From the NCBI GenBank assembly GCA_965217115.1, contig OZ244239.1, positions 320,001 through 384,000 on the forward strand: a DNA stretch of 64,000 bases, written 5' to 3'. Below are positions 9,156 to 55,296 of the stretch, in pieces. Source of the DNA: Bdellovibrionales bacterium (GTDB taxonomy: Bacteria > Bdellovibrionota > Bdellovibrionia > Bdellovibrionales > CAYMLA01). Each line of letters opens with the position of its first letter. The first letter of the stretch is position 1. The notes under the pieces were generated by a model that saw nothing but the letters and a program-made list of their open reading frames with translations, did no database searches and was not told the origin of the DNA. The translations under genes were made by a program, and so were the position numbers.

Positions 9156-10058
9156 TTAACAGGGAATTAAATCTTTCTTTAGCTCTTCTGGAGGCTCTTC
9201 CGACCACAAACTCAACACAAACCCCCCACAACCTGAACCCGTTGGTTTTACTGAAGCAGCTCCATGGTCTTTTAAAAAAAACATATGCTCATTCAACTTG
9301 CTCGAAAGAAGATCCCATTCCTGAAAACACTCTCTAGCTAATTCAATACCCTTGCATAAAAGCGGGAATCCCTCTGCCTCTCCACAAGCTAACGCTTTTT
9401 CACATAAATCCACTGCCTCAGACATTTTACCATCCAGAGAGGTTAAAACTTCTGGGGCCTTCTCACCCATTTTCTGCACTCTCTGCACACAATCACTCGT
9501 ATTTGATTTTTCACCACTATAAGATAAAAACCAATGGGGTTGCCACTTGATTTCCAATGGACGGCGAACTCCTTTTTTTTCAAAGTAAAGCCCTCTACCA
9601 CCTAGTGCCACAGCAATGTCTAATCCACTGCTCTGCCCATGGAACAGGTCTTCCAATCCACGGGCAAACTCATAGACTTCCGACTCTCTCTTTAAACCCA
9701 AGGCCGCCACCCAACGGGAGATAATCACACACAGAGACGCCGAAGCACCGATACCAGCCCCAAAGGGCAAGTTATTATGAACAACCAACTCACCCTTGAT
9801 AGCCTCCAAAGTAACTTCGCACTCCTTCAAAGCACGATCAATCACCTCTTGCACCGTCTTATGTAAGTTTTGATCAATCTCGCAATGAACATGCAAAGAG
9901 AATTTCTGATCTGTCTTCGTATAACTAAGAGTCATCTTCTTACCAATGACAGGAAACACCAGCGCTGGACAACCCCTAAGAACAGAGTGTTCACCCGCTA
10001 AAATCCACTTTCCATAGGCCTCAGTTTTGAATATTCCTGCCATCTCTGACTCTTCCAT
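9156..10058 (-). CDS. mvk: Mevalonate kinase (GHMP family)
   Basis: GKWILAGEHSVL, PFGAGIGASAS, HGQSSGLD and KPTGSGCGG motifs; cluster context. Confidence 0.88.
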   Translation of the reverse strand: MEESEMAGIFKTEAYGKWILAGEHSVLRGCPALVFPVIGKKMTLSYTKTDQKFSLHVHCEIDQNLHKTVQEVIDRALKECEVTLEAIKGELVVHNNLPFGAGIGASASLCVIISRWVAALGLKRESEVYEFARGLEDLFHGQSSGLDIAVALGGRGLYFEKKGVRRPLEIKWQPHWFLSYSGEKSNTSDCVQRVQKMGEKAPEVLTSLDGKMSEAVDLCEKALACGEAEGFPLLCKGIELARECFQEWDLLSSKLNEHMFFLKDHGAASVKPTGSGCGGFVLSLWSEEPPEELKKDLIPC

Positions 10059-10085
10059 ATTTAACCCTTCTTAATCGCATTAAAT

Positions 10086-11087
10086 TCATGAAAAATCACG
10101 ACTGTCAATCACTGAGAACTTTCCATTAAAAGAAGCGCTTAAAGAATCCAATATCTCTGCCTGATCCTCTCTAAACAATAAGTGTACATTCGCTCCAGCA
10201 TCCATAGTTACAATGGGACCATCAGAAAATTGATTCCACTGCTCACGCACGGTCTCTAAAACTTCCAAAGACCCGGAAGACATATAACCAAATGGCGGAC
10301 AACTCGTCTCAAACAGAGAATGCATGTCCCAAAACTCTGACCATGTGACTTCATAAGCCCTACGCCAGTCTTTCTTAATAAGGGCCTCTTTTAATTCCCT
10401 TAGTCTGTCTTCAGCACGAGTCACTCGACCTGAAAACAAAGCACTTTCCAAAATTTTTACATGGGCTGCAGAAGATGACACCTCTTTCTTCTCTTTACTC
10501 ACCACCACGCATAAGTGCAGTAGATGATTGTAAGGTATTTTGCTAATCTCTTTAACTCCCTCTTGACCCCACTCTACCCAAGAATTTATATTCCTCGATT
10601 CCATAAAAGAACGGCACGACGATCCCGACCCCCTACGACTCAATTCTATCATTTCAAGAAGAGACAACTCCTTTCCCGTCTCTTCACCCAGAGCCTGACA
10701 AGCGGCCAAAGTTAAAGCGGCAAAACTCGATGCAGAACTTGCCAGCCCACAGTCAGATGGGAATCCATTGGTAGAACGAACGTTAAAGTTTCCCACATAG
10801 GAAAACTCCTTTTTTATCGCACTCAAATGATTCAAATATCTTTTCTGTCCCTCTTCTGAAAGCTCGACTTGAAAACCTCCCTTGCTAAAGGTCTTTGTCA
10901 AAGGCTTCCAACTGTCACAAGTGTCATCTGTTTTTTCAATCTCAACATAGGATCGTAAATGCCCAAGAGTGTACGATAGTGAAGAGTTTGTAGGCTTGTT
11001 TACACTCGTATCCGATTTACCCATGTACTTAATCAATGCAATATTAGAGGGGGCTGAGGCTTTCCATGTTTTCATCTCACACACCAC
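10086..11087 (-). CDS. mvaD: Diphosphomevalonate decarboxylase
   Basis: APSNIALIKYMGK, GLASSASSFAAL, RRGSGSSCRS and TMDAGANVH motifs. Confidence 0.95.
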   Translation of the reverse strand: MVCEMKTWKASAPSNIALIKYMGKSDTSVNKPTNSSLSYTLGHLRSYVEIEKTDDTCDSWKPLTKTFSKGGFQVELSEEGQKRYLNHLSAIKKEFSYVGNFNVRSTNGFPSDCGLASSASSFAALTLAACQALGEETGKELSLLEMIELSRRGSGSSCRSFMESRNINSWVEWGQEGVKEISKIPYNHLLHLCVVVSKEKKEVSSSAAHVKILESALFSGRVTRAEDRLRELKEALIKKDWRRAYEVTWSEFWDMHSLFETSCPPFGYMSSGSLEVLETVREQWNQFSDGPIVTMDAGANVHLLFREDQAEILDSLSASFNGKFSVIDSRDFS

Positions 11088-12042
11088 CCATGGCTACGAT
11101 AGGTAGGTCCTTACTAGAAAATAATTCGAGCAACGACTCTTTATAGTCATTCGCAAAAAAAACAAGTATCGTATCGGCCCCCATCGCTCCGCAACCTTTG
11201 GCCGCAAGAACTCCTCTCTCATTTTTAATAAAAGACAGCAACTCCTTCGTGTATGCTGCCACCCAATTTCTCTCAGAGAGAAGATCGCCATATTTTTTAA
11301 TACTCCCCAGAAATAAATCATCTAACCCTTCACGTAAAGACTTCTGTAACTCTAAAACCACCTCAGTAAAGTCATTTACATCACCCAACAATAATGAATT
11401 CAAATGCTCATGGGTGGATAACTTCTTCCCCGTACGCAAAATCAAATAACCCATATTAGAAAAGGGCCACGACAACTGAGAGTAGGGTGAATCTCCCTGA
11501 CAAGAATCAAAAAAAATAGCACTCTTATCCCCATGATCACCGTTATCAGTATTGCCTTCATCAATATACGTTCCAAAAAGCTGCGCTATCAAGTCAACAC
11601 CACTAGGTGGAATCCCGACCCCACTCCAAGCCATTGAACGATAAGCATCAAGTAACGAACCTGTTTCTAAGGACGAAATATCTGATAATTCCTCTAATGA
11701 TGGAGAATCTGCCGACAAAAGATACACCAACAGGAATTGTGCCGTTGAAGCTCCAAACCCACCTTGCCCTTTATGGGGGTCATAAAAGAAACAACTCTTC
11801 TGTGAAAACACTTCTGAATACAAATCCATCCACTTCCCCGCTGGACTTTTACAGTGTAACGCCTCACTAAGAAATTCCCCAATAAATTCACCACTCGATG
11901 CAGACCCATGGGCTTCATCTTGTTTAGATAAAAAACCACATTGAAAATAAGGTGCAGCCGTCAATAACACCGACGGACCACCCATCAACGTTGCATACTC
12001 ACCACATAAAAATGTCTTACTTGGAACTTTGCAGGTTTTCAT
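11077..12042 (-). CDS. Probable phosphomevalonate kinase (divergent GHMP kinase)
   Basis: PSKTFLCGEY, GFGAS, SGVD and KGCGAMGAD GHMP motifs; second GHMP kinase in the mevalonate cluster. Confidence 0.75.
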   Translation of the reverse strand: MKTCKVPSKTFLCGEYATLMGGPSVLLTAAPYFQCGFLSKQDEAHGSASSGEFIGEFLSEALHCKSPAGKWMDLYSEVFSQKSCFFYDPHKGQGGFGASTAQFLLVYLLSADSPSLEELSDISSLETGSLLDAYRSMAWSGVGIPPSGVDLIAQLFGTYIDEGNTDNGDHGDKSAIFFDSCQGDSPYSQLSWPFSNMGYLILRTGKKLSTHEHLNSLLLGDVNDFTEVVLELQKSLREGLDDLFLGSIKKYGDLLSERNWVAAYTKELLSFIKNERGVLAAKGCGAMGADTILVFFANDYKESLLELFSSKDLPIVAMGGV

Positions 12043-13348
12043 ATCTCAGCTTACGAACCTCTTGTAAAACTTCAATGGCTTGACTCAAAGAGATTCTCTT
12101 CGTCGTCATTAACATTTTCTCTAACTGTTTACGCATTAAAGGGATTTCCTCTTCTCTAGCTCCCGCTCCTAAAGCTAAATTATTAATGTGTAGCTTCATA
12201 TGACCACGAACAATACCCTCATCGGTCAAAGCCTTCAACGCACCGAGATTCTGCACCAACCCCACTGCCGCAATCACAGATGACAACTCACCAGCCGACC
12301 CAACATTGAGCATATTCAAACACATCTTGGCCGTTGGATGTAAACTCGTCACCCCACCCACTGTTCCCACGATAATCGGGGCGCGCAGAGTTCCCACTAA
12401 GTTTTTTCCCTCTACCTTCCATTGAGTTAAAGAACGATAACGACCGCCACGAACACAATAGGCGTGCATTCCCGCCCCCACAGCACGCCAATCATTCCCT
12501 GTAGCAATTAAAATAGGGTCAACTCCATTAAGAACCCCTTTATTATTGGTCGCTGCACGATAGGGGTCTTGCTCGGCAAACAATGAAGCTTCTTCAATCT
12601 TGTGAGCCATCTCTAAATCAACATTCTCAATAGTAGCTCGAACTTCCGTCAATTTAGAATCAACGAGATTCGATAAAATACACATCGTCACCTTGTCGCC
12701 CGTTAACTTTTCAATATAGGGTTTTAAAAATTCACAGACCTGATTAATAATATTTGCACCCATCGCATTACAGGAGTTCAAATAAATATGAACCACTGCC
12801 ATATCACCGCCACTGCCGTCATCTTTTCTCGGTACACGACGAACCGTGATATCTCCCACGCCGCCACCACGCTTAACCATATTTACGACAGCTTTCTCGT
12901 TACACATTTCTATAAGACGTGACTTATGATCTTCTATCATCTGTGCAAATTTTCCATAATCTGTAACATGGGCCACCTGCACCTGCCCGATGATCTCATC
13001 ACCAATCATGCGACTCTCTATACGACCATTTTGCCTAATCCACTTAGCATTCTTACAACAGGCGGCCACGATGGATGTCTCTTCCACCGCCATAGGTACA
13101 ACGTAATCCTTGCCATCCACATTTAAATTAGTAATCACCCCCAGGGGTAACTGAAAATAACCAATCACATTCTCAATGAATTTCTCACCAAGAGTTGGGT
13201 CCTTGATTCCACCCTGATTTAAATACTCAATATCAACAGGATCTAAAGCGCCAAATTCAATCAAACGCCCAAAACGCTCTTCACGTGAGAGTTTTGAAAA
13301 GCCAGAAAACAGTGCGGAGACTGTGTCTTTTACGTCTTTCTTGTCCAT
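12017..13348 (-). CDS. mvaA: HMG-CoA reductase, class II
   Basis: ENVIG, PMAVEETSIVAA, AMGAN, RAATNNKG, GNDWRA and GHMKLH motifs. Confidence 0.95.
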   Translation of the reverse strand: MDKKDVKDTVSALFSGFSKLSREERFGRLIEFGALDPVDIEYLNQGGIKDPTLGEKFIENVIGYFQLPLGVITNLNVDGKDYVVPMAVEETSIVAACCKNAKWIRQNGRIESRMIGDEIIGQVQVAHVTDYGKFAQMIEDHKSRLIEMCNEKAVVNMVKRGGGVGDITVRRVPRKDDGSGGDMAVVHIYLNSCNAMGANIINQVCEFLKPYIEKLTGDKVTMCILSNLVDSKLTEVRATIENVDLEMAHKIEEASLFAEQDPYRAATNNKGVLNGVDPILIATGNDWRAVGAGMHAYCVRGGRYRSLTQWKVEGKNLVGTLRAPIIVGTVGGVTSLHPTAKMCLNMLNVGSAGELSSVIAAVGLVQNLGALKALTDEGIVRGHMKLHINNLALGAGAREEEIPLMRKQLEKMLMTTKRISLSQAIEVLQEVRKLRYENLQSSK

Positions 13349-14382
13349 ACCTGTCTCTGTCGTAATTCCTCTAGATTTTCACAGCCCGTGCAAAACATCG
13401 CTGTCCTTAACTCAAACTCCAACTGCTCCATCTCTTGCAACAGTGATTCATAACCCTCAATGGCCGCCTTCATCATCGGCATCGCAACACCAACCATTCC
13501 AGCACCCATAGCCAATAACTTAGCACCATCGACTCCTGAACGAACTCCCCCAGAAGCCCAGACATGGTAATCTTTTTTTATCTCAAGAGCACTCAACATC
13601 GAATTCACTGTACTAATGCCCCAATCCTGAAAAGACGTGAACGCCTTAGCCCGCGTGTCGTTTTCACCAGCCCTTAAACTTTCAACCCTTCCCCAATGGG
13701 TCCCACCAAGACCACTCACATCCACAGCAAAAACACCCAAACCAATGAGCTTCTGTAATGTTCTCTGTGATAATCCCGTTCCTGTTTCCTTCACAATGAC
13801 TGGAACCGATAGCCCTTGGCAGAGGCGAGAGATCGCCTCCGTTCCACCACGGAAATCAGTCGTTCCCTCTGGTTGAAAACACTCCTGCAAAGGGTTCAAG
13901 TGAACCACCATCGCCCCAGCACCGAGACTCTTCACTAATTTTTCTACACTGCTCACGGGAGTTTTAATCAACTGCGCCACACCAATATTGCCAAGAAATA
14001 AGACATCAGGCGCAAGCTCTCTGACCCTCTTCCACTCATCTCCTGCATCAGAATCTAATAACTCCTTGCGCTGGGAACCCACACCCATCACCCAATTTTT
14101 TTTCTGAGCCCCACGGGCCAATGTCTGATTAATAGATAACGAATCCCCATGACCAGCCGTCATACAGCTAATAAAGAATGGACTGTTTATTTTTTTAGAA
14201 AACAACGAACACTCAATAGAGACATCGGAACAATTAATATCAGGTAAAGCCTCATGGATAAGATCAATATCCTCAAATCCCGACAGTCCAAAGGCTTGAG
14301 TTCTCCCATCCAAAGCTAAACGAATATGATCTCGTTTACGCTCTTCAAAAATTTTATTTTTCTCAATATCTGTAAGAGCCAT
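13330..14382 (-). CDS. fni: Type 2 isopentenyl-diphosphate isomerase
   Basis: RKRDHI, MTAG, GVGSQR, HLNPLQE..QPEG, VKETG, GGTHW and SGGVR motifs. Confidence 0.95.
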   Translation of the reverse strand: MALTDIEKNKIFEERKRDHIRLALDGRTQAFGLSGFEDIDLIHEALPDINCSDVSIECSLFSKKINSPFFISCMTAGHGDSLSINQTLARGAQKKNWVMGVGSQRKELLDSDAGDEWKRVRELAPDVLFLGNIGVAQLIKTPVSSVEKLVKSLGAGAMVVHLNPLQECFQPEGTTDFRGGTEAISRLCQGLSVPVIVKETGTGLSQRTLQKLIGLGVFAVDVSGLGGTHWGRVESLRAGENDTRAKAFTSFQDWGISTVNSMLSALEIKKDYHVWASGGVRSGVDGAKLLAMGAGMVGVAMPMMKAAIEGYESLLQEMEQLEFELRTAMFCTGCENLEELRQRQVWTRKT

Positions 14383-30980: not shown

Positions 30981-31556
30981 ATGGCAAAAATCTACACAAA
31001 AACAGGCGATAAGGGCCAAACAGGCTTAGTTAGTGGACAGTGTGTCAGTAAAGACCATCCCCGCGTAGATGCTTATGGACAAATTGATGAACTCAACAGC
31101 CGCATTGGCATGGCACGAATTCACACAAATGACGATGAAACTCTCAACTCTTTATCTCAATATCTCGAACGTATTCAGAATGAACTTTTTAATCTCGGCA
31201 GTTTGTTAGCATGTGATGACGATTCTCTACGACTGAATCTTCCTGCTATTAATGAAGAGCATGTACAGTTCCTCGAATCAATCATTGATCAATTCGATCA
31301 AGAGCTACCAGAACTTAAAACGTTCATCATCCCCGGGGGGTCAGCACTTGCCAGCCAATTGCACCTCTGCCGCACTGCTTGCCGCAAAGCTGAGCGCAGC
31401 TGTGTTACTCTTAAAAAACAGAGCTCTGTTCCCGAAGTCTACTTGCAATACTTAAATCGCCTCAGTGATTTTTTCTTCGTCTCTGCTCGTATGGCTAATT
31501 GGTGGCTGGGCATCAAAGATTTTCCCTGGCGCTTTGGGCAAGGGAACCGCCTTTAG
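30981..31556 (+). CDS. PduO-type ATP:cob(I)alamin adenosyltransferase
   Basis: KIYTKTGDKG.T, AYGQIDELNS, FIIPGG, CRKAER and YLNRLSD motifs. Confidence 0.95.
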   Translation: MAKIYTKTGDKGQTGLVSGQCVSKDHPRVDAYGQIDELNSRIGMARIHTNDDETLNSLSQYLERIQNELFNLGSLLACDDDSLRLNLPAINEEHVQFLESIIDQFDQELPELKTFIIPGGSALASQLHLCRTACRKAERSCVTLKKQSSVPEVYLQYLNRLSDFFFVSARMANWWLGIKDFPWRFGQGNRL

Positions 31557-32470
31557 CTGGAACTCTATCGTAAAGCTCAGACATTCGTTTGGCAGCGCCG
31601 CTCGCTGAAGCGAGCATCGCACCAAGCCGAACTCGCTTTACGATAGAGTTCCAGCTAAAGGCTTTTGCTTGAAAGCTTCTGGTACTGAGAACAACGGGGC
31701 GCTTTGGGCAAGGAACCGCCTTTAGATGGAACTCTATCGTAGAGCTCAGACATTCGTTTGGGCAGCGCCGCTCGCTGAAGCGAGCATCGCGCCAAGCCGA
31801 ACTCGCTATACGATAGAGTTCCATCTAAAGGCTTTTGCTTGAAAGCTTCTGGGACTGGGAACAACGGGGGGCTTTGGCAAGGAACCGCCTTTAGGTGGAA
31901 CTTTATCGTATAGCTCAGACATCGTTTGGGCAGCGGCGCTCGCTGAAGCGAGCATCGCGCCAAGCCGAACTCGCTATACGATAGAGTTCCATCTAAAGGC
32001 TTTTGCTTGAAAGCTTCTGGGACTGGGAACAACGGGGGGCTTTGGCAAGGAACCGCCTTTAGGTGGAACTTTATCGTATAGCTCAGACATCGTTTGGCAG
32101 CGGCGCTCGCTGAAGCGAGCATCGCGCCAAGCCGAACTCGCTTTACGATAGAGTTCCATCTAAAGGCTTTTGCTTGAAAGCTTCTGGGACTGGGAACAAC
32201 GGGGCGCTTTGGCAAGGAACCGCCTCTAGATAGGACTCTATCGTATAGCTCAGACATTCGTTTGGGCAGCGGCGCTCGCTGAAGCGAGCATCGCGCCAAG
32301 CCGAACTCGCTTTACGATAGAGTTCCATCTAAAGGCTTTTGCTTGAAAGCTTCTGGGACTGGGAGCAACGGGGGGCTTTGGGTAAGGGAACCGCCTTTAG
32401 GTGGAACTCTATCGTATAGCTCAGACATCGTTTGGGTAGCGGTGCTCGCTTTAGCGAGCACCGCACCAAA
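31528..32470 (+). repeat. Tandem array of ~167-170-bp palindromic units (5 full plus 1 truncated)
   Basis: Leader GCTTTGG recurs at 31531, 31701, 31871, 32039, 32206 and 32375. Each full unit is leader + 28-bp arm + ~58-nt core with GCTCGC-TGAA-GCGAGC hairpin + complementary 28-bp arm + tail ending GAACAACGG. Confidence 0.97.
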
Positions 32471-32506
32471 GATCGTTAGTTTCTTGAGTTAAATACGGGT
32501 GGGTAA

Positions 32507-32875
32507 TTAGTTAGTCTCTTTTAAAAATTGAAGCGCTTCTTGTTTTTTCTTAAGAAGGTATTTATTACAATTTTTTAATTGAGTGTTTCGTCTAATTTCA
32601 GCTGGGCTTAGTTCACCAGCGAGAGCAGAAACGTCAGGAAAACCTAGGCTTTGTATTCTACAAAAGCTAACTCTATTTTTTAAAAGTACTTTTCTAAGTG
32701 CTAACTGTCCTATATATAATTGTGCTATAATTTCGTCCTTAGACATTTTTGTAATTTCGTTTTTTATGTTATCAACATCATAGAATTCACTATTTACTCC
32801 AGAAAAGAGTAATACTTCATCAGCAAATGCTGATACAGAACCTAAAAGGACTAAACTTAATAATATTTTTTTCAT
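32507..32875 (-). CDS. Small secreted hypothetical protein
   Basis: AGGAG RBS, Sec signal MKKILLSLVLLGSVSAFA; AT-rich; no family recognised. Confidence 0.8.
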   Translation of the reverse strand: MKKILLSLVLLGSVSAFADEVLLFSGVNSEFYDVDNIKNEITKMSKDEIIAQLYIGQLALRKVLLKNRVSFCRIQSLGFPDVSALAGELSPAEIRRNTQLKNCNKYLLKKKQEALQFLKETN

Positions 32876-32973
32876 ATTTTTTCTCCTTATAAATAAGTTT
32901 ATTGTGAGTTTTGCTTGCAACTTGTCTTACTAGACAAATAATAAAAAGAAATATTTGTCCTCGTTTTTAGAGC

Positions 32974-33261
32974 CTAGTGGTTTATGAGAGTGTTACACCT
33001 CATTGATTTCTCAATGATTAGTTCTGTTATTGCTAAATCAAACTCTGCCATTTTTTCTTGTGAAACTGATAGTCCAACAGCAAGATTTGCGATCGCATTT
33101 TTATTTAGAGATAATGCAGCTCTCATTTCACTTAGTCGATTAGTACAAAATTCTAGTCTTGTTTTCTCTGAAGCCAGTTTTCCAGCTCTGCTCTGATTTA
33201 ATGCAAAAACCGAATTACTTAACATTAAGATGCTGATCGTTCCAAGTAATAATTTTTTCAT
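32974..33261 (-). CDS. Small secreted hypothetical protein
   Basis: GGAG RBS, Sec signal MKKLLLGTISILMLSNSVFA, two Cys, helical character; AT-rich. Confidence 0.8.
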   Translation of the reverse strand: MKKLLLGTISILMLSNSVFALNQSRAGKLASEKTRLEFCTNRLSEMRAALSLNKNAIANLAVGLSVSQEKMAEFDLAITELIIEKSMRCNTLINH

Positions 33262-33479
33262 AATATTCTCCGTTTTTTGAGTAATGACTCTTAACCTTAG
33301 ATGAATAGGAACTATAGTCGAAAAAAGTATACATCTCTAGAGCTATAGTCATTTGTGCAAAACTTACAAAAAAATGTGGCCTGTCACTTTTTAATGGAAA
33401 TTACACCCCCTAGGGCATCTTTTTTATTAAAATGAGCCTTAAGCTGCTTTGAGGAACATATCCAGATACTCACGGATTT

Positions 33480-33679
33480 CATCTAAAGGCTTTTGCTTGA
33501 AAACTTAGGGGGCGCTTTGGCCAATGGAACCGCCTTTAGCTGGAACTCTATCGTATAGCTCAGACATTCGTTTGGCAGCGCCGCTCGCTTCAGCGAGCAG
33601 CGCACCAAGCCGAACTCGCTTTACGATAAAGTCCCATCTAAAGGCTTTTACTTGAAAGCTTAGGGACTGTGAACAACGG
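33480..33679 (+). repeat. Right-arm remnant plus one further full copy of the ~170-bp unit
   Basis: CATCTAAAGGCTTTTGCTTGAAA at 33480-33502, then a complete leader-arm-core-arm-tail at 33511-33679. Confidence 0.93.
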
Positions 33680-33724
33680 AGTTTAGGGGGGAAACAACGG
33701 AGCTCAACGGGAACAACGGGGCGG

Positions 33725-33889
33725 CGTTGTTCACAGTTAAGTGCACTTTTAGATAAGAGTGGTCCAAAGGGGGTTTGTCTTCAAATGAGTTCGGATTGGT
33801 GCGATGCTCGTGAAGCGAGCGGCGCTGCCAAACGCATGTTTGAATTTGAAGATAAACCCCCTTTGGACCACGGCTTACCTACCCAAAGC
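33725..33889 (-). repeat. Inverted copy of the ~170-bp unit carrying different 28-bp arms
   Basis: The minus strand has a recognisable leader, core and tail. Arms at 33759-33786 and 33844-33871 are complementary (27/28) but unrelated to the array arms. Confidence 0.9.
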
Positions 33890-33891
33890 AA

Positions 33892-34641
33892 CTAAGCGGT
33901 TTGTGTTTTTTTAAACCAACCCAACATAGGATCTTCCCCTATAAACTCAAGCACCTCAACATTGAAGGTTTTTAAATATTCTTTTTGCATTGAATTTAAA
34001 ACAATATCTCCCGATCCAATATGAATAACTTTATGGCCCTTATTTTTCTCTGCTACCATAACCGCTAATTTAGTTAAATCCATTTCACAAGTCTTCAGAG
34101 AGGTCAGTCCATCATCTGAAAAATGATAGGCTCCGTATTTCTTCAAACTCTTGCCCACTAAAAAAGGAACACCCTCATCAATAGGAACTAGTTGCAAGTG
34201 TCTTTTTTCCTTTAGTTTCTTTATATGGGCGTTCACCCACTCTTCCATATTCTCTTTTCCAGTATAGAAACTCAAAGCAGAGACATCGGCACAATCACCA
34301 ATCAAATAAGACGGGGTCCCGTGCAAGCGGCAATAACGACGGTACAACCCTATTTGCACCAACTCCATGATCATATCTCGCCAAACACCCTCTTTCATAA
34401 TCTGGTTATCATCGGCTGTCATGGCATTCAACAGATCCCAATGCTTTTGGGCAGAGGTTGAATATTTAGCATCCAGACACGATTGGGCCTCTCTAAAACA
34501 CTGGCGAATCTCTGGAATACGTTGCACACCCATGCACAAATCCTCATCACCTAACTGATAACTTCCCGAAAAAATAACAATTGCCATAACTTCCCGCCCC
34601 TTCATTTTTAACTCCTCCTCCATATAAAGTAACTTTTCCAT
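33892..34641 (-). CDS. Hypothetical protein, degenerate FabD/acyltransferase-like fold
   Basis: By-eye similarity to FabD segments (VIFSG, PEIRQCFREA, VQIGLYRRY, PSYLIG, IHIGSG); lacks GHSxG. Confidence 0.55.
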   Translation of the reverse strand: MEKLLYMEEELKMKGREVMAIVIFSGSYQLGDEDLCMGVQRIPEIRQCFREAQSCLDAKYSTSAQKHWDLLNAMTADDNQIMKEGVWRDMIMELVQIGLYRRYCRLHGTPSYLIGDCADVSALSFYTGKENMEEWVNAHIKKLKEKRHLQLVPIDEGVPFLVGKSLKKYGAYHFSDDGLTSLKTCEMDLTKLAVMVAEKNKGHKVIHIGSGDIVLNSMQKEYLKTFNVEVLEFIGEDPMLGWFKKTQTA

Positions 34642-50246: not shown

Positions 50247-50708
50247 AATTTAACCTCTTGTTTTATAGTTTTAAAAAGCTTCTACTCTCAATATATGATA
50301 ATTCAATTTTTAGGCCATAGTATCTACCTGTATTCAGGTACTTACGAGCCATTAAACTCCACGGCAAGGGCCTTTAGACGGTAATTGTCCTTCACTGTCA
50401 AAAAGAATGACTCTTTATTAGTTCTTTCCCTTTTTTGTGGGAGGGCTAAATCACAGGCATCTCCTGCTTATGGAAGGTTGAGTTCAGACGACATGTTACT
50501 ACGTACTTTTTTGCAAACTTCCCATTTACGCTTTTCACGAAAAAATATGACTTCCACCTGCCAACCCATCATCTTTAAATGCTTTGTCCGAAGTTGATAT
50601 TGATCGTGATAATTTCCTAACTCGTTATCAAAGACAATTTTAAAGATTCTTTATGACAAACATATGACAAAAAAAAATAGTGGAGCCAGTTTTTTTCTGA
50701 TGAGCTGG

Positions 50709-50858
50709 TTTTTTTCTAGAGTTCTCCCAAAAGAATCCAGCCCTTTTCTTGCTCAAACATTCGTTTGTCACCTTCCATTGCAGGGAAATGCAATGGAAGT
50801 CGCCAAGCCAAACTCGCCGAAAAGAACTGGACTCTTTTGGGAGAACCCTAGAAAAAAA
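50709..50858 (+). repeat. Diverged member of the ~170-bp palindromic element family
   Basis: GCTCAAACATTCGTTTG...CCAAGCCAAACTCGC junction motifs enclose a different inner hairpin, inside a different ~40-bp outer stem. Confidence 0.8.
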
Positions 50859-51031
50859 GGCCCTATTCAATCAATGGGTCAATGGACCTCTTTCTATGAC
50901 TGGCCTCCATGTATAACAACGCTGTTATCCATGGATAGTTTTAGAAAGAGAGCCCTCAAGATGGGTCTCTTGGGAATAGTTCCACTATTTATCACAAAGA
51001 ATCACTTTAAAAGACGAGCTTTCTCGAACCC

Positions 51032-51060
51032 AAAAAAAAAGGCGACTCAATCGTCGCCTT
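51032..51060 (-). terminator. Rho-independent terminator for the 51112-51531 gene
   Basis: Minus strand AAGGCGAC-GATTGA-GTCGCC followed by T9. Confidence 0.8.
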
Positions 51061-51111
51061 CTCACCATCCCCTAGCTTTGTCGGCTGAGGGCTAATCATT
51101 TATCTAGTGTT

Positions 51112-53680: not shown

Positions 53681-53880
53681 CGATACAAATTGCCAGTCTC
53701 CCACCTTTTTGACCACTACATCTTTAAGTCTTTTAAAAAAATGGCGCGTTAAGTTATCTCCCCTCTTCACTTTGTCTTGAGGCTTTTACGTTGACTTATT
53801 TGGGCCAGGCTGCGATTCATTATAAACTTTAGTTTGTGGGAGTCTATGTGGGCTCTATATCTTTTAAAAAGGAGTTATTT

Positions 53881-54309
53881 ATGTCTGGAGTGAACAAAGT
53901 CATTATTGTAGGACGCTTAGGTGTTGATCCTGAAGTTAAGACTGTTACAAGTGGGCAAACCGTTACCCGTCTAAGTGTCGCTACAAGCGAAAACTGGACA
54001 GACAAAGAAGGCAATCGCCAGGAACGCACTGAGTGGCATCGTATTGTCGTTTGGGGAAAACTCGCTGATATTTGTGGCAAGTATCTCGCCAAGGGAAGAG
54101 AAGTCTATGCCGAGGGTCGTTTGCAAACACGTTCTTGGGAGGACCAGCAAGGACAAAAGCGTTACACAACAGAGATCGTTGCCAATACGATTCAGTTTAT
54201 CGGTGGTAAATCCGATTACCGTGAAGATTCTAATACTCAAAGTACAAATGACGTTGGTGATTTTGGCCCCGAACCAACTTTTAATACCACTGAAGAAATT
54301 CCATTCTAG
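53881..54309 (+). CDS. ssb: Single-stranded DNA-binding protein
   Basis: [30 protein letters not shown] and acidic IPF tail; AAGGAG RBS before ATG 53881. Confidence 0.98.
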
Positions 54310-54411: not shown

Positions 54412-55296
54412 CTAGTGACTCGCCTCGTGGGACACTTCATCGGCTTGTAGATTCTCGCCATGTCGATAACGGTCGACCAGAGATTTATCCTTCGTGGGAA
54501 ATGAGAAGAGAAGGGCATGCATATTCGACTCCTCATCTTCTTGAGTCACAACAATATAATGAAGATCCTCAACCCCCTCATCTGGGTGTTCCTTAATAAA
54601 AGACACTAAAATATTACCACTTAAATCTGTGTTACGCCAAATCTCATCCGCCGCTTCTATGGTCTGATGACGGAGGGATGAAAATTGACGGTAATCTTCA
54701 TCAGGGATATCACTCTCACTACGCAGAGTGAGCATTGCTTTAAAAAGACCGACAGATAGAAAATCACCCTCTCCCAAAGCATCCCCTTCAAGGGAGGCAA
54801 ATTCAATTTGTTCAAAATCTTGATCAAATATCAATTCACCGGCACAGTATGTATCTAAAAATTCAATGTCTTTTGTTGGGAAATGCAAATAGACAAAAGT
54901 TGGAAGGTCATTGGTCAAATAAGCCGTCACGACATAAGAAAATTTCTTTCCATTAACTTCACACTTAGAGACAAAATGATTTAAAATTTCCCCTTCAACA
55001 GTGAAAGTATCTTCCCATACCTCATCAGGATAATCTAAAGTCGCATTCAAGTATTTCTCATACTTTTCATGATCTTCAACAGAGATATCTGTATCAGAGC
55101 GTAGGGAAAAGAACTTCTTCTCCAGTACGTCAACAACGGGTCTAAAGTATTCAAGTAAGTCTTCCTCTGTAGAGAAGATCAACCCTTTGCCTTCATCAAT
55201 CACAATGGTCTCTGCGTCTAGATCAACCACAGAATTGCTAGCCTTCTTTTTTGCTTTCATCTTTAACTGTGGAGGTTTCTTTTTAGGGGGCGACAT
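54412..55296 (-). CDS. Acidic hypothetical protein with an internal domain duplication (PBECR-like motif)
   Basis: Two copies of LRS..DI..ED...T(L/I)...DE(V/I)W...Y(V/I)V...FPTKD. Confidence 0.7.
   Translation of the reverse strand: MSPPKKKPPQLKMKAKKKASNSVVDLDAETIVIDEGKGLIFSTEEDLLEYFRPVVDVLEKKFFSLRSDTDISVEDHEKYEKYLNATLDYPDEVWEDTFTVEGEILNHFVSKCEVNGKKFSYVVTAYLTNDLPTFVYLHFPTKDIEFLDTYCAGELIFDQDFEQIEFASLEGDALGEGDFLSVGLFKAMLTLRSESDIPDEDYRQFSSLRHQTIEAADEIWRNTDLSGNILVSFIKEHPDEGVEDLHYIVVTQEDEESNMHALLFSFPTKDKSLVDRYRHGENLQADEVSHEASH

Follow-up and report, generated by a model that had tools for sequence, protein, structure and literature searches.

A family of long intergenic hairpin repeats with a constant interior junction and variable paired arms in a Bdellovibrionales bacterium

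How two copies of a long hairpin can share nearly the same interior and the same dimensions, and still carry arms of quite different sequence that remain paired within each copy, is the question raised by a unit at positions 33725-33889 (minus strand) of the 64,000-nucleotide stretch of Bdellovibrionales DNA analysed here (the window). The original prediction described this unit, called INV below, as a relative of a nearby tandem array in which a common scaffold had been kept while the 28-bp arms were completely exchanged. Two explanations were offered: a scaffold presenting an exchangeable duplex, either guide-like or a precursor of small RNAs, or a mobile hairpin whose replication copies one arm onto the other. 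The analysis below follows the scaffold into further copies, locates the part of it that is constant, and weighs these explanations with several others.

The INV unit and its class A relatives

The five-part layout of INV (18+28+57+28+34 nt) was confirmed, and it is that of the array. Read on the minus strand, INV (arm class B) consists of an 18-nt leader, GCTTTGGGTAGGTAAGCC, which begins with GCTTTGGG (33872-33889), a 28-nt 5' arm (33844-33871), a 57-nt core (33787-33843), a 28-nt 3' arm (33759-33786) and a 34-nt tail ending in ACTGTGAACAACG (33725-33758). The arms are paired at 27 of 28 positions, the single exception being an A.C. The RNA fold of 33715-33895 (minus strand) has an energy of -74.2 kcal/mol (z = -7.9) that none of 200 shuffles equals, and the covariance model described below scores the unit at 113.9 bits (E 3.5e-26). 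The duplex does not stop at the 28-bp arms, as had been supposed: leader and tail also pair, through GGTAAG/CTTATC and GCTTT/AAAGT in INV and through CAAG/CTTG and GCTTT/AAAGC in the array. The variable paired zone therefore measures about 38-46 nt per side, and the unit as a whole makes up a single extended hairpin of about 150 nt. A second, small hairpin (GAACAACG, a 6-nt loop, CGTTGTTC) lies at the end of the INV tail (33711-33732, minus strand; fold -16 kcal/mol, z -3.8).

INV starts 2 nt past the stop codon of an ORF at 33892-34641 (minus strand), which encodes 249 aa without a Pfam or NCBIfam match. A protein-language-model search places this product near malonyl-CoA:ACP transacylases, distantly (Atlas 0.91) and as a lead only. 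The ORF, acyltransferase-like on that Atlas lead alone, was considered as a partner protein of INV and dropped.

The tandem array (31531-32469, plus strand) comprises 5.6 units of arm class A with a period of 167-170 nt (TRF score 1608, 94% matches) and segments of 18+28+57/58+28+34 nt. Its five full units score 119-136 bits with the covariance model and the partial unit 32.2 bits. The first unit begins 26 nt ahead of the stop of a PduO-type cobalamin adenosyltransferase ORF (30981-31556), and the final unit is truncated within the junction, after CCAA. The same arms are found in all 5.6 array units and in U7, a single class A unit at 33514-33679 (plus strand; arms 33532-33559 and 33618-33645, core 33560-33617; 122.2 bits). 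A degenerate unit, U0, precedes it (33443-33513, plus strand); a start resembling the leader, the final 14 nt of the 3' arm and the tail survive in it, and the 5' arm and core are missing. Four arm mismatches are present in U7 and another four in array unit U5. U0, the truncated final unit and the four-mismatch copies U5 and U7 show that resident copies decay neutrally.

U7 and INV are arranged tail to tail, and between their tails stand four RAACAACGG-like motifs in a row (33671-33719, plus strand); AACAACGG occurs four times there and once per array unit, that is, every 167-170 bp. This linker and those of the array are C-rich and G-poor on the minus strand. Between the truncated end of the array and U0, the segment 32470-33442 holds two small minus-strand ORFs (32507-32920 and 32974-33261) with signal-peptide-like N-termini and no family match; this segment may have been inserted into, and so have split, a once longer array. 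A translated 214-aa frame running through the array found only itself among 5.8 billion proteins, at near and at shorter lengths.

Four arm classes around one junction

A covariance model of arm, core and arm was built from the seven full copies in the window and run with filters off over both strands of 74,048 bases (the window and two fetched loci). It recovers its own seven copies at 114-136 bits and adds two divergent ones, V4 and L002; beyond these and the copies already known, nothing rises above noise on either strand of the 74,048 bases. V4 (50709-50858, plus strand; 44.7 bits, E 7.9e-9) represents arm class C, with a stem of about 40 bp (50709-50748 with 50819-50858), a core at 50753-50815 and a fold of -81 kcal/mol (z -7.8). 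Both its arms and its apical hairpin are replaced and its junction strands are conserved, with TCAAACATTCGTTTG and CGCCAAGCCAAACTC at the inner arm ends as in the other copies. Downstream (50906-50935) there is a small hairpin whose stem is AACAACG-like (z -2.3). V4 is placed in an 865-nt gap between two minus-strand genes. It is spanned by an ORF (50664-51095, 143 aa) that has no family match and is probably spurious. An adjoining 547-aa ORF was tried as a partner protein and gave nothing.

The search of other genomes with the constant motif that the original prediction had called for used a strict 24-nt core pattern, which copies of the V4 type cannot match, on 185,579 representative genomes. 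It returned two loci, of which one is a true copy; the other forms no hairpin, has no covariance-model match and is taken as chance. The true copy, L002, lies on contig JADZEO010000084.1 of a Bdellovibrionales metagenome-assembled genome (2440-2615 of the locus, minus strand, with the model match at 2471-2590; 83 bits) and has unrelated arms, which make up a fourth class. Its neighbours are genes for a PilS-like histidine kinase and a sigma-54 response regulator, to both of which it is opposite in orientation, and downstream of it is a small hairpin (z -1.5) whose stem is similar to that of INV. The L002 region has a GC content of 50.7% and the window one of 41.7%, so the core has stayed constant across clearly different genomes and the arms have not. 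With one true match to the strict pattern among 185,579 genomes, the family looks rare. An AACAAC-type motif may form one side of the small downstream hairpin in the three singleton copies, a suggestion that carries weak to moderate confidence.

The family, then, consists of hairpin repeats of roughly 150-200 nt located between genes, in four arm classes. The idea of a constant frame around a variable duplex proves to be real and more general than first proposed, in that the apical helix is also exchanged in one class. Only the junction is constant in all four: TCARACATKCGTTYG on the 5' side and, preceded by CG(C)N, CCAAKCCRAACTC on the 3' side. It forms a helix of 5-6 bp, P1, in which GTTYG(G) pairs with (C)CRAAC, set between a bulge of 10 nt on the 5' strand and one of about 6 nt (NCCAAK) on the 3' strand. 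One P1 pair takes three forms, C-G in L002, U-A in V4 and U.G in both INV and the array, which supports this pairing over an alternative register. The GC-rich apical hairpin is common to three of the four classes, with TGAA, TTCA, CTTCA and GATT as loop variants. Short motifs also mark the ends, GCTTTGG on the 5' side and ACTGKGAACAACG on the 3' side, which are not inverted repeats of each other; the array and INV agree in an initial GCTTTGGG and a final ACTGKGAACAACG, and V4 and L002 have looser versions. Between these constant modules the paired sequence is free to vary yet stays complementary.

How far the arms and the core differ is best seen by comparing INV with array unit U1. Identities are 15/19 in the leader, 12/28 in the 5' arm, 52/58 in the core, 11/28 in the 3' arm and 23/35 in the tail, so the exchanged but still paired arms beside a nearly identical core were correctly described. 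Leader and tail are thus 21-34% diverged, most strongly where they pair, which argues that the array and INV are old relatives and not recent copies with a swapped insert. In these two, every paired position outside the core has been free to change. The arms had been said to lack evident similarity. Statistically this stands, the alignment of INV with U1 arms being no better than that of shuffles (p = 0.30); the inner 14 nt, however, share 8/14 positions and the outer 14 nt only 4/14. Over the six pairings of the four arm classes p ranges from 0.06 to 0.94, and none exceeds shuffles. The core is identical at 50/58 positions between INV and L002 and at 51/59 between U1 and L002; the lower values for V4 (39-42/63 against the other copies) arise because its apical hairpin is replaced.

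Among the 28 arm pairs of the seven full window copies, 17 have changed on both sides, 8 are invariant and 3 deviate solely through unpaired cells. In shuffled controls the double-sided pairs number 4.2 +/- 1.6, and none of 500 reaches 17. When the table is read against the alignment, INV accounts for 15 of the double-sided changes and U1 and U3 for one each, and no core pair varies (0/15, same seven copies). Between INV and the array the pair table gives 15 double-sided changes and no one-sided change, and many of them are transversion swaps that could not have passed through G.U.

The original prediction also held that simple drift would not have kept the length of the arms. This argument points the opposite way: identical segment lengths are the outcome of substitution without insertions or deletions, whereas a cassette exchange would require four breakpoints and gives no ground for keeping 28 nt. 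It is for their perfection that the arms call for a special process. Divergence is similar in arms and core inside class A (U1 against U7, 52/56 and 55/58), so the contrast between them arises between lineages and not from faster mutation of arms, and this points to selection on the core in the lineage that founds new copies.

Genomic setting and known repeat families

The gene content of the window is that of an ordinary chromosome. It includes Phe- and Thr-tRNA synthetases, IF3, a mevalonate pathway, alternative complex III, cytochrome c biogenesis, a type II secretion cluster, an ABC-F protein, SSB and PutA. The mevalonate cluster (9156-14382, minus strand) encodes HMG-CoA reductase, GHMP kinases, diphosphomevalonate decarboxylase and an FMN-dependent dehydrogenase, and adjoining ssb (53836-54309) is an ORF (54412-55296, minus strand) with a PBECR2 domain (Barnase/EndoU/ColicinE5-D/RelE-like nuclease, E 1.9e-10). 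The neighbours of the array and INV are the adenosyltransferase, small secreted proteins, the acyltransferase-like ORF and GspC. No transposase, RAYT/Y1, HUH, integrase, reverse-transcriptase or cas family shows up in the 59 window ORFs scanned or in any window ORF of at least 120 aa (the window spans 64 kb, the contig at least 2.17 Mb). Orientation relative to genes is mixed: INV points the same way as its upstream gene, V4 and L002 oppose both flanking genes, and the array runs with the gene on one of its sides and against the gene on the other. The long close inverted repeats of the 64 kb all belong to the hairpin family; among the 25 longest of 40 pairs listed, none outside it has at least 23 nt at 85% or more.

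The family matches no described family, as the original prediction had surmised, while intergenic hairpin repeats as such are already known. Rfam 15 gives no match at gathering score in the whole window. At E<=10 in 31400-34000 there are only sub-threshold generic hairpins, the best being a plant miRNA model (34.5 bits against a gathering score of 90). A full-text literature search, judged from its result entries, found no published description of such a repeat in Bdellovibrio. Searches with blastn, using U7 and INV against plasmids, phages and E. coli genomes and V4 against plasmids, gave no real match; a 42-nt Acaryochloris plasmid match (E 0.2) was taken as chance. The chance that the element is something categorically new is small.

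The closest comparison is with REPINs. REPINs are REP doublets that form hairpins and are mobilised by RAYT transposases; they show compensatory changes on both sides of the hairpin, occur in tandem clusters, and leave the question of how their symmetry is re-established open (PMC3116915). The present family resembles REPINs as portrayed there: long extragenic hairpins of about 100-150 nt, non-autonomous, present singly or as near-identical tandem units, with part of the hairpin held by pairing alone and changed in compensatory fashion, here at 17 pairs (PMC3116915). It differs in where conservation lies, for the REPIN 16-mers are conserved in the end arms and the spacer varies, whereas here the arms vary and the junction is constant (PMC3116915). 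The compensatory changes (17 pairs against 4.2 +/- 1.6 in shuffled controls) and the tandem cluster (5.6 units at 94%) are thus as in REPINs, and the conservation of arms is not, the arms being unrelated (p 0.06-0.94) around an interior core with 50-52 of 58 positions identical. No RAYT gene occurs among the window ORFs of at least 120 aa, the window covering 64 kb and the contig at least 2.17 Mb. The foot motif of REPINs is of the GTAG type, and such a motif is found here only in INV, as GGGTAGG.

Other intergenic repeats of similar size offer a partial likeness. Correia/NEMIS, ERIC/IRU and the Bacillus cereus repeat bcr1 are multicopy hairpin repeats of 100-170 nt, often located just past stop codons and in either orientation, and they are recognised by conservation along the whole unit or by terminal inverted repeats. 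In the present family, by contrast, the terminal-proximal stems share no sequence between classes. MITEs are marked by terminal inverted repeats that are conserved among copies and by target-site duplications; here the stems are not conserved between classes, and no target-site duplication is seen by eye at the INV and V4 flanks.

A series of further candidates was set aside. A retron msr-msd RNA was rejected for want of a reverse transcriptase in the 59 window ORFs, and a CRISPR array because the 167-170-nt units abut without unique spacers and have the same arms, with no cas gene in the window. Integron attC sites follow the consensus of outer RYYYAAC ... GTTRRRY boxes with a variable centre; here the boxes, GTTYGG ... 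CCRAAC, are interior and in reverse order (GTT first), the centre is conserved and the outer stems vary. A TnpB/IscB omega RNA finds no tnpB or iscB in the window or in 5 kb of L002, and no Rfam match. By reading against consensus sequences, none of 6S RNA, Y RNA, SRP RNA or group II intron domain V fits all four classes, and the same holds for an IHF site, parS, sigma-54 and sigma-28 promoters and a CsrA-binding GGA.

Origin and maintenance of the variable arms

The explanation favoured here, tentatively and at something short of an even chance, is that the family is a REPIN/MITE-like, non-autonomous selfish hairpin. The junction and the ends would be the recognition sites of an enzyme encoded elsewhere in the genome, which would probably recognise the hairpin as extruded or single-stranded DNA. 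During copying or repair one arm would template the other, by fold-back or template-switch copying, and a mutation in an arm would accordingly be either lost or fixed on both sides. In this manner the arms could drift to unrelated sequence while remaining perfect Watson-Crick duplexes of the same length. Resident copies would then decay, with tandem amplification by unequal recombination, and as a by-product strong hairpins would be placed in the transcripts of flanking genes. If the family is such a hairpin, the arms are strictly Watson-Crick because one was copied from the other.

The step that this explanation needs has a precedent. Template switching at E. coli quasipalindromes makes imperfect inverted repeats more perfect, and in doing so copies an arm from an arm; it is, however, a mutational mechanism demonstrated with E. 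coli reporters, without an element family, and the copies described here keep mismatches (PMC7202029). U5 and U7, with four mismatches each, indeed indicate that arm copying cannot be efficient in resident copies. The mobile hairpin of the original prediction stands to the extent that it fits the absence of wobble pairs in the arms (55 of 56 pairs Watson-Crick in U1 and INV), the decaying neighbours, the occurrence in both orientations and the truncated copies; mobility itself, like the enzyme encoded elsewhere and the arm-to-arm copying, is what we infer from these features. Several observations weigh against it. REPINs and MITEs conserve their arms or ends, whereas here the interior junction is most conserved; the U.G/C-G/U-A pair of P1 and the G.U mismatches of V4 are RNA-like features; and among the copies found, none are dispersed with shared arms but different flanks. 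Nor was an empty site or, by eye at the INV and V4 flanks, a target-site duplication seen; no window ORF of at least 120 aa offers a candidate enzyme, and the apparent rarity of the family also counts against mobility.

The main alternative, somewhat less probable, is a structured non-coding or cis-acting RNA in several paralogous copies, with junction bulges bound by protein and helices kept by selection on RNA structure. Like Rfam-type structured RNAs, the family combines a conserved unpaired junction with replaceable helices, even to the wholesale replacement of the apical helix in V4, and the three-way variation of one P1 pair is of the same kind; the architectures of the array and INV also agree to the nucleotide. 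All four transition-type arm mismatches of V4 are G.U on the strand transcribed for the flanking genes, and on that strand the fold energies are lower for V4 (-90.6 against -70.8 kcal/mol) and L002 (-90.2 against -74.9 kcal/mol). Yet the strand evidence is inconsistent, a departure from structured RNAs. U3 and U4 fold better on the strand opposite to that of V4, L002, U7 and INV (-82 against -71 to -73 kcal/mol), the counts of G.U-type mismatches per copy are mixed, and the P1 pair of the array and INV becomes a C.A mismatch on the strand that V4 and L002 favour. Moreover, the arms of U1 are paired at 28/28 positions and those of INV at 27/28 with no G.U on either strand, which is unusual for old RNA helices and, together with the double-sided transversion swaps, points to complementarity that would have been maintained at the level of DNA. 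Promoter-like and terminator-like sites are absent from the elements (7 promoter-like and 1 terminator-like are predicted in 31300-34100, all at 32655-33418), there is no Rfam family, and the truncated and degenerate copies, the tandem array and the mixed orientation to genes likewise set the family apart from such RNAs. The evidence on RNA versus DNA is, in sum, split.

The remaining alternatives put the constant or the variable part to other uses. It is unlikely that the junction and AACAACGG are a host DNA site, bound by a chromosomal DNA-binding or cruciform-binding protein and extruded or spaced by the arms. An imperfect inverted repeat (TTCGTTTGG and CCAAGCCGAA) is indeed present in the junction halves, as is CRAAC in direct repetition, AACAACGG recurs with each array unit and in the U7-INV linker, and such a site would function in either orientation; but no match to a known site consensus was seen, some copies are degenerate, copies lie at unrelated loci, L002 has only a loose AACAACG motif, and nothing links the site to a protein. 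More improbable again is the insertion of a small mobile core (about 58-63 nt) into the loops of pre-existing palindromes, so that the arms would be unrelated host hairpins. The lack of relation between arm classes would follow directly, and the GC content of the arms, calculated by hand (46% in U1, 43% in INV), is nearer to that of the window (41.7%) than to that of whole hairpins (51-54%). Such insertion is argued against by conservation outside the arms between the array and INV (8/8 in GCTTTGGG, and 13/13 in ACTGTGAACAACG with U7), by the identical arm lengths (28 and 28), and by the finding that none of the 25 longest of 40 close inverted repeats listed for the 64 kb is a long palindrome without a core.

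The least probable of all is the guide-like or pre-small-RNA scaffold of the original prediction, in which the 28-bp duplex would be a payload open to exchange and, once processed, would find complementary targets. Its appeal is purely architectural, a handle that stays constant beside a duplex variable in sequence and fixed in length, and long perfect duplexes would be substrates for double-strand-specific RNases. The matches expected of a guide did not materialise: the longest exact arm matches in the window are 10 nt, at chance level (shuffled 28-mers have a mean of 10.3 and a maximum of 13), no arm match is found elsewhere in the 64 kb at up to 8 mismatches, and there is none in phages, plasmids or E. 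coli genomes. The same arms recur in 5.6 array units and U7, unlike the members of a guide array, and no effector-like gene lies near the elements among the window ORFs. A related reading with a very slim chance of its own treats the junction as a handle for a protein acting on RNA or single-stranded DNA and the length-fixed duplex of about 28 bp as a lineage-specific payload, for instance a precursor of small duplex RNA or a templated specificity module; if true, it would mean a new bacterial system of scaffold plus variable duplex in a lineage of predatory bacteria.

Whichever explanation applies, the 15-nt and 13-nt strands of the junction provide a precise handle for a census of the family and for a pull-down of its partner. 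If the copies are RNAs, they would constitute a structured RNA family that is new, confined to Bdellovibrio-like bacteria and built on a compact conserved junction. If they are instead selfish mobile hairpins, the reading preferred here, the recognised part would be the interior bulge-helix-bulge junction and not the arms, and arms that are unrelated in sequence yet strictly Watson-Crick would count as direct evidence for the regeneration of one arm from its partner.
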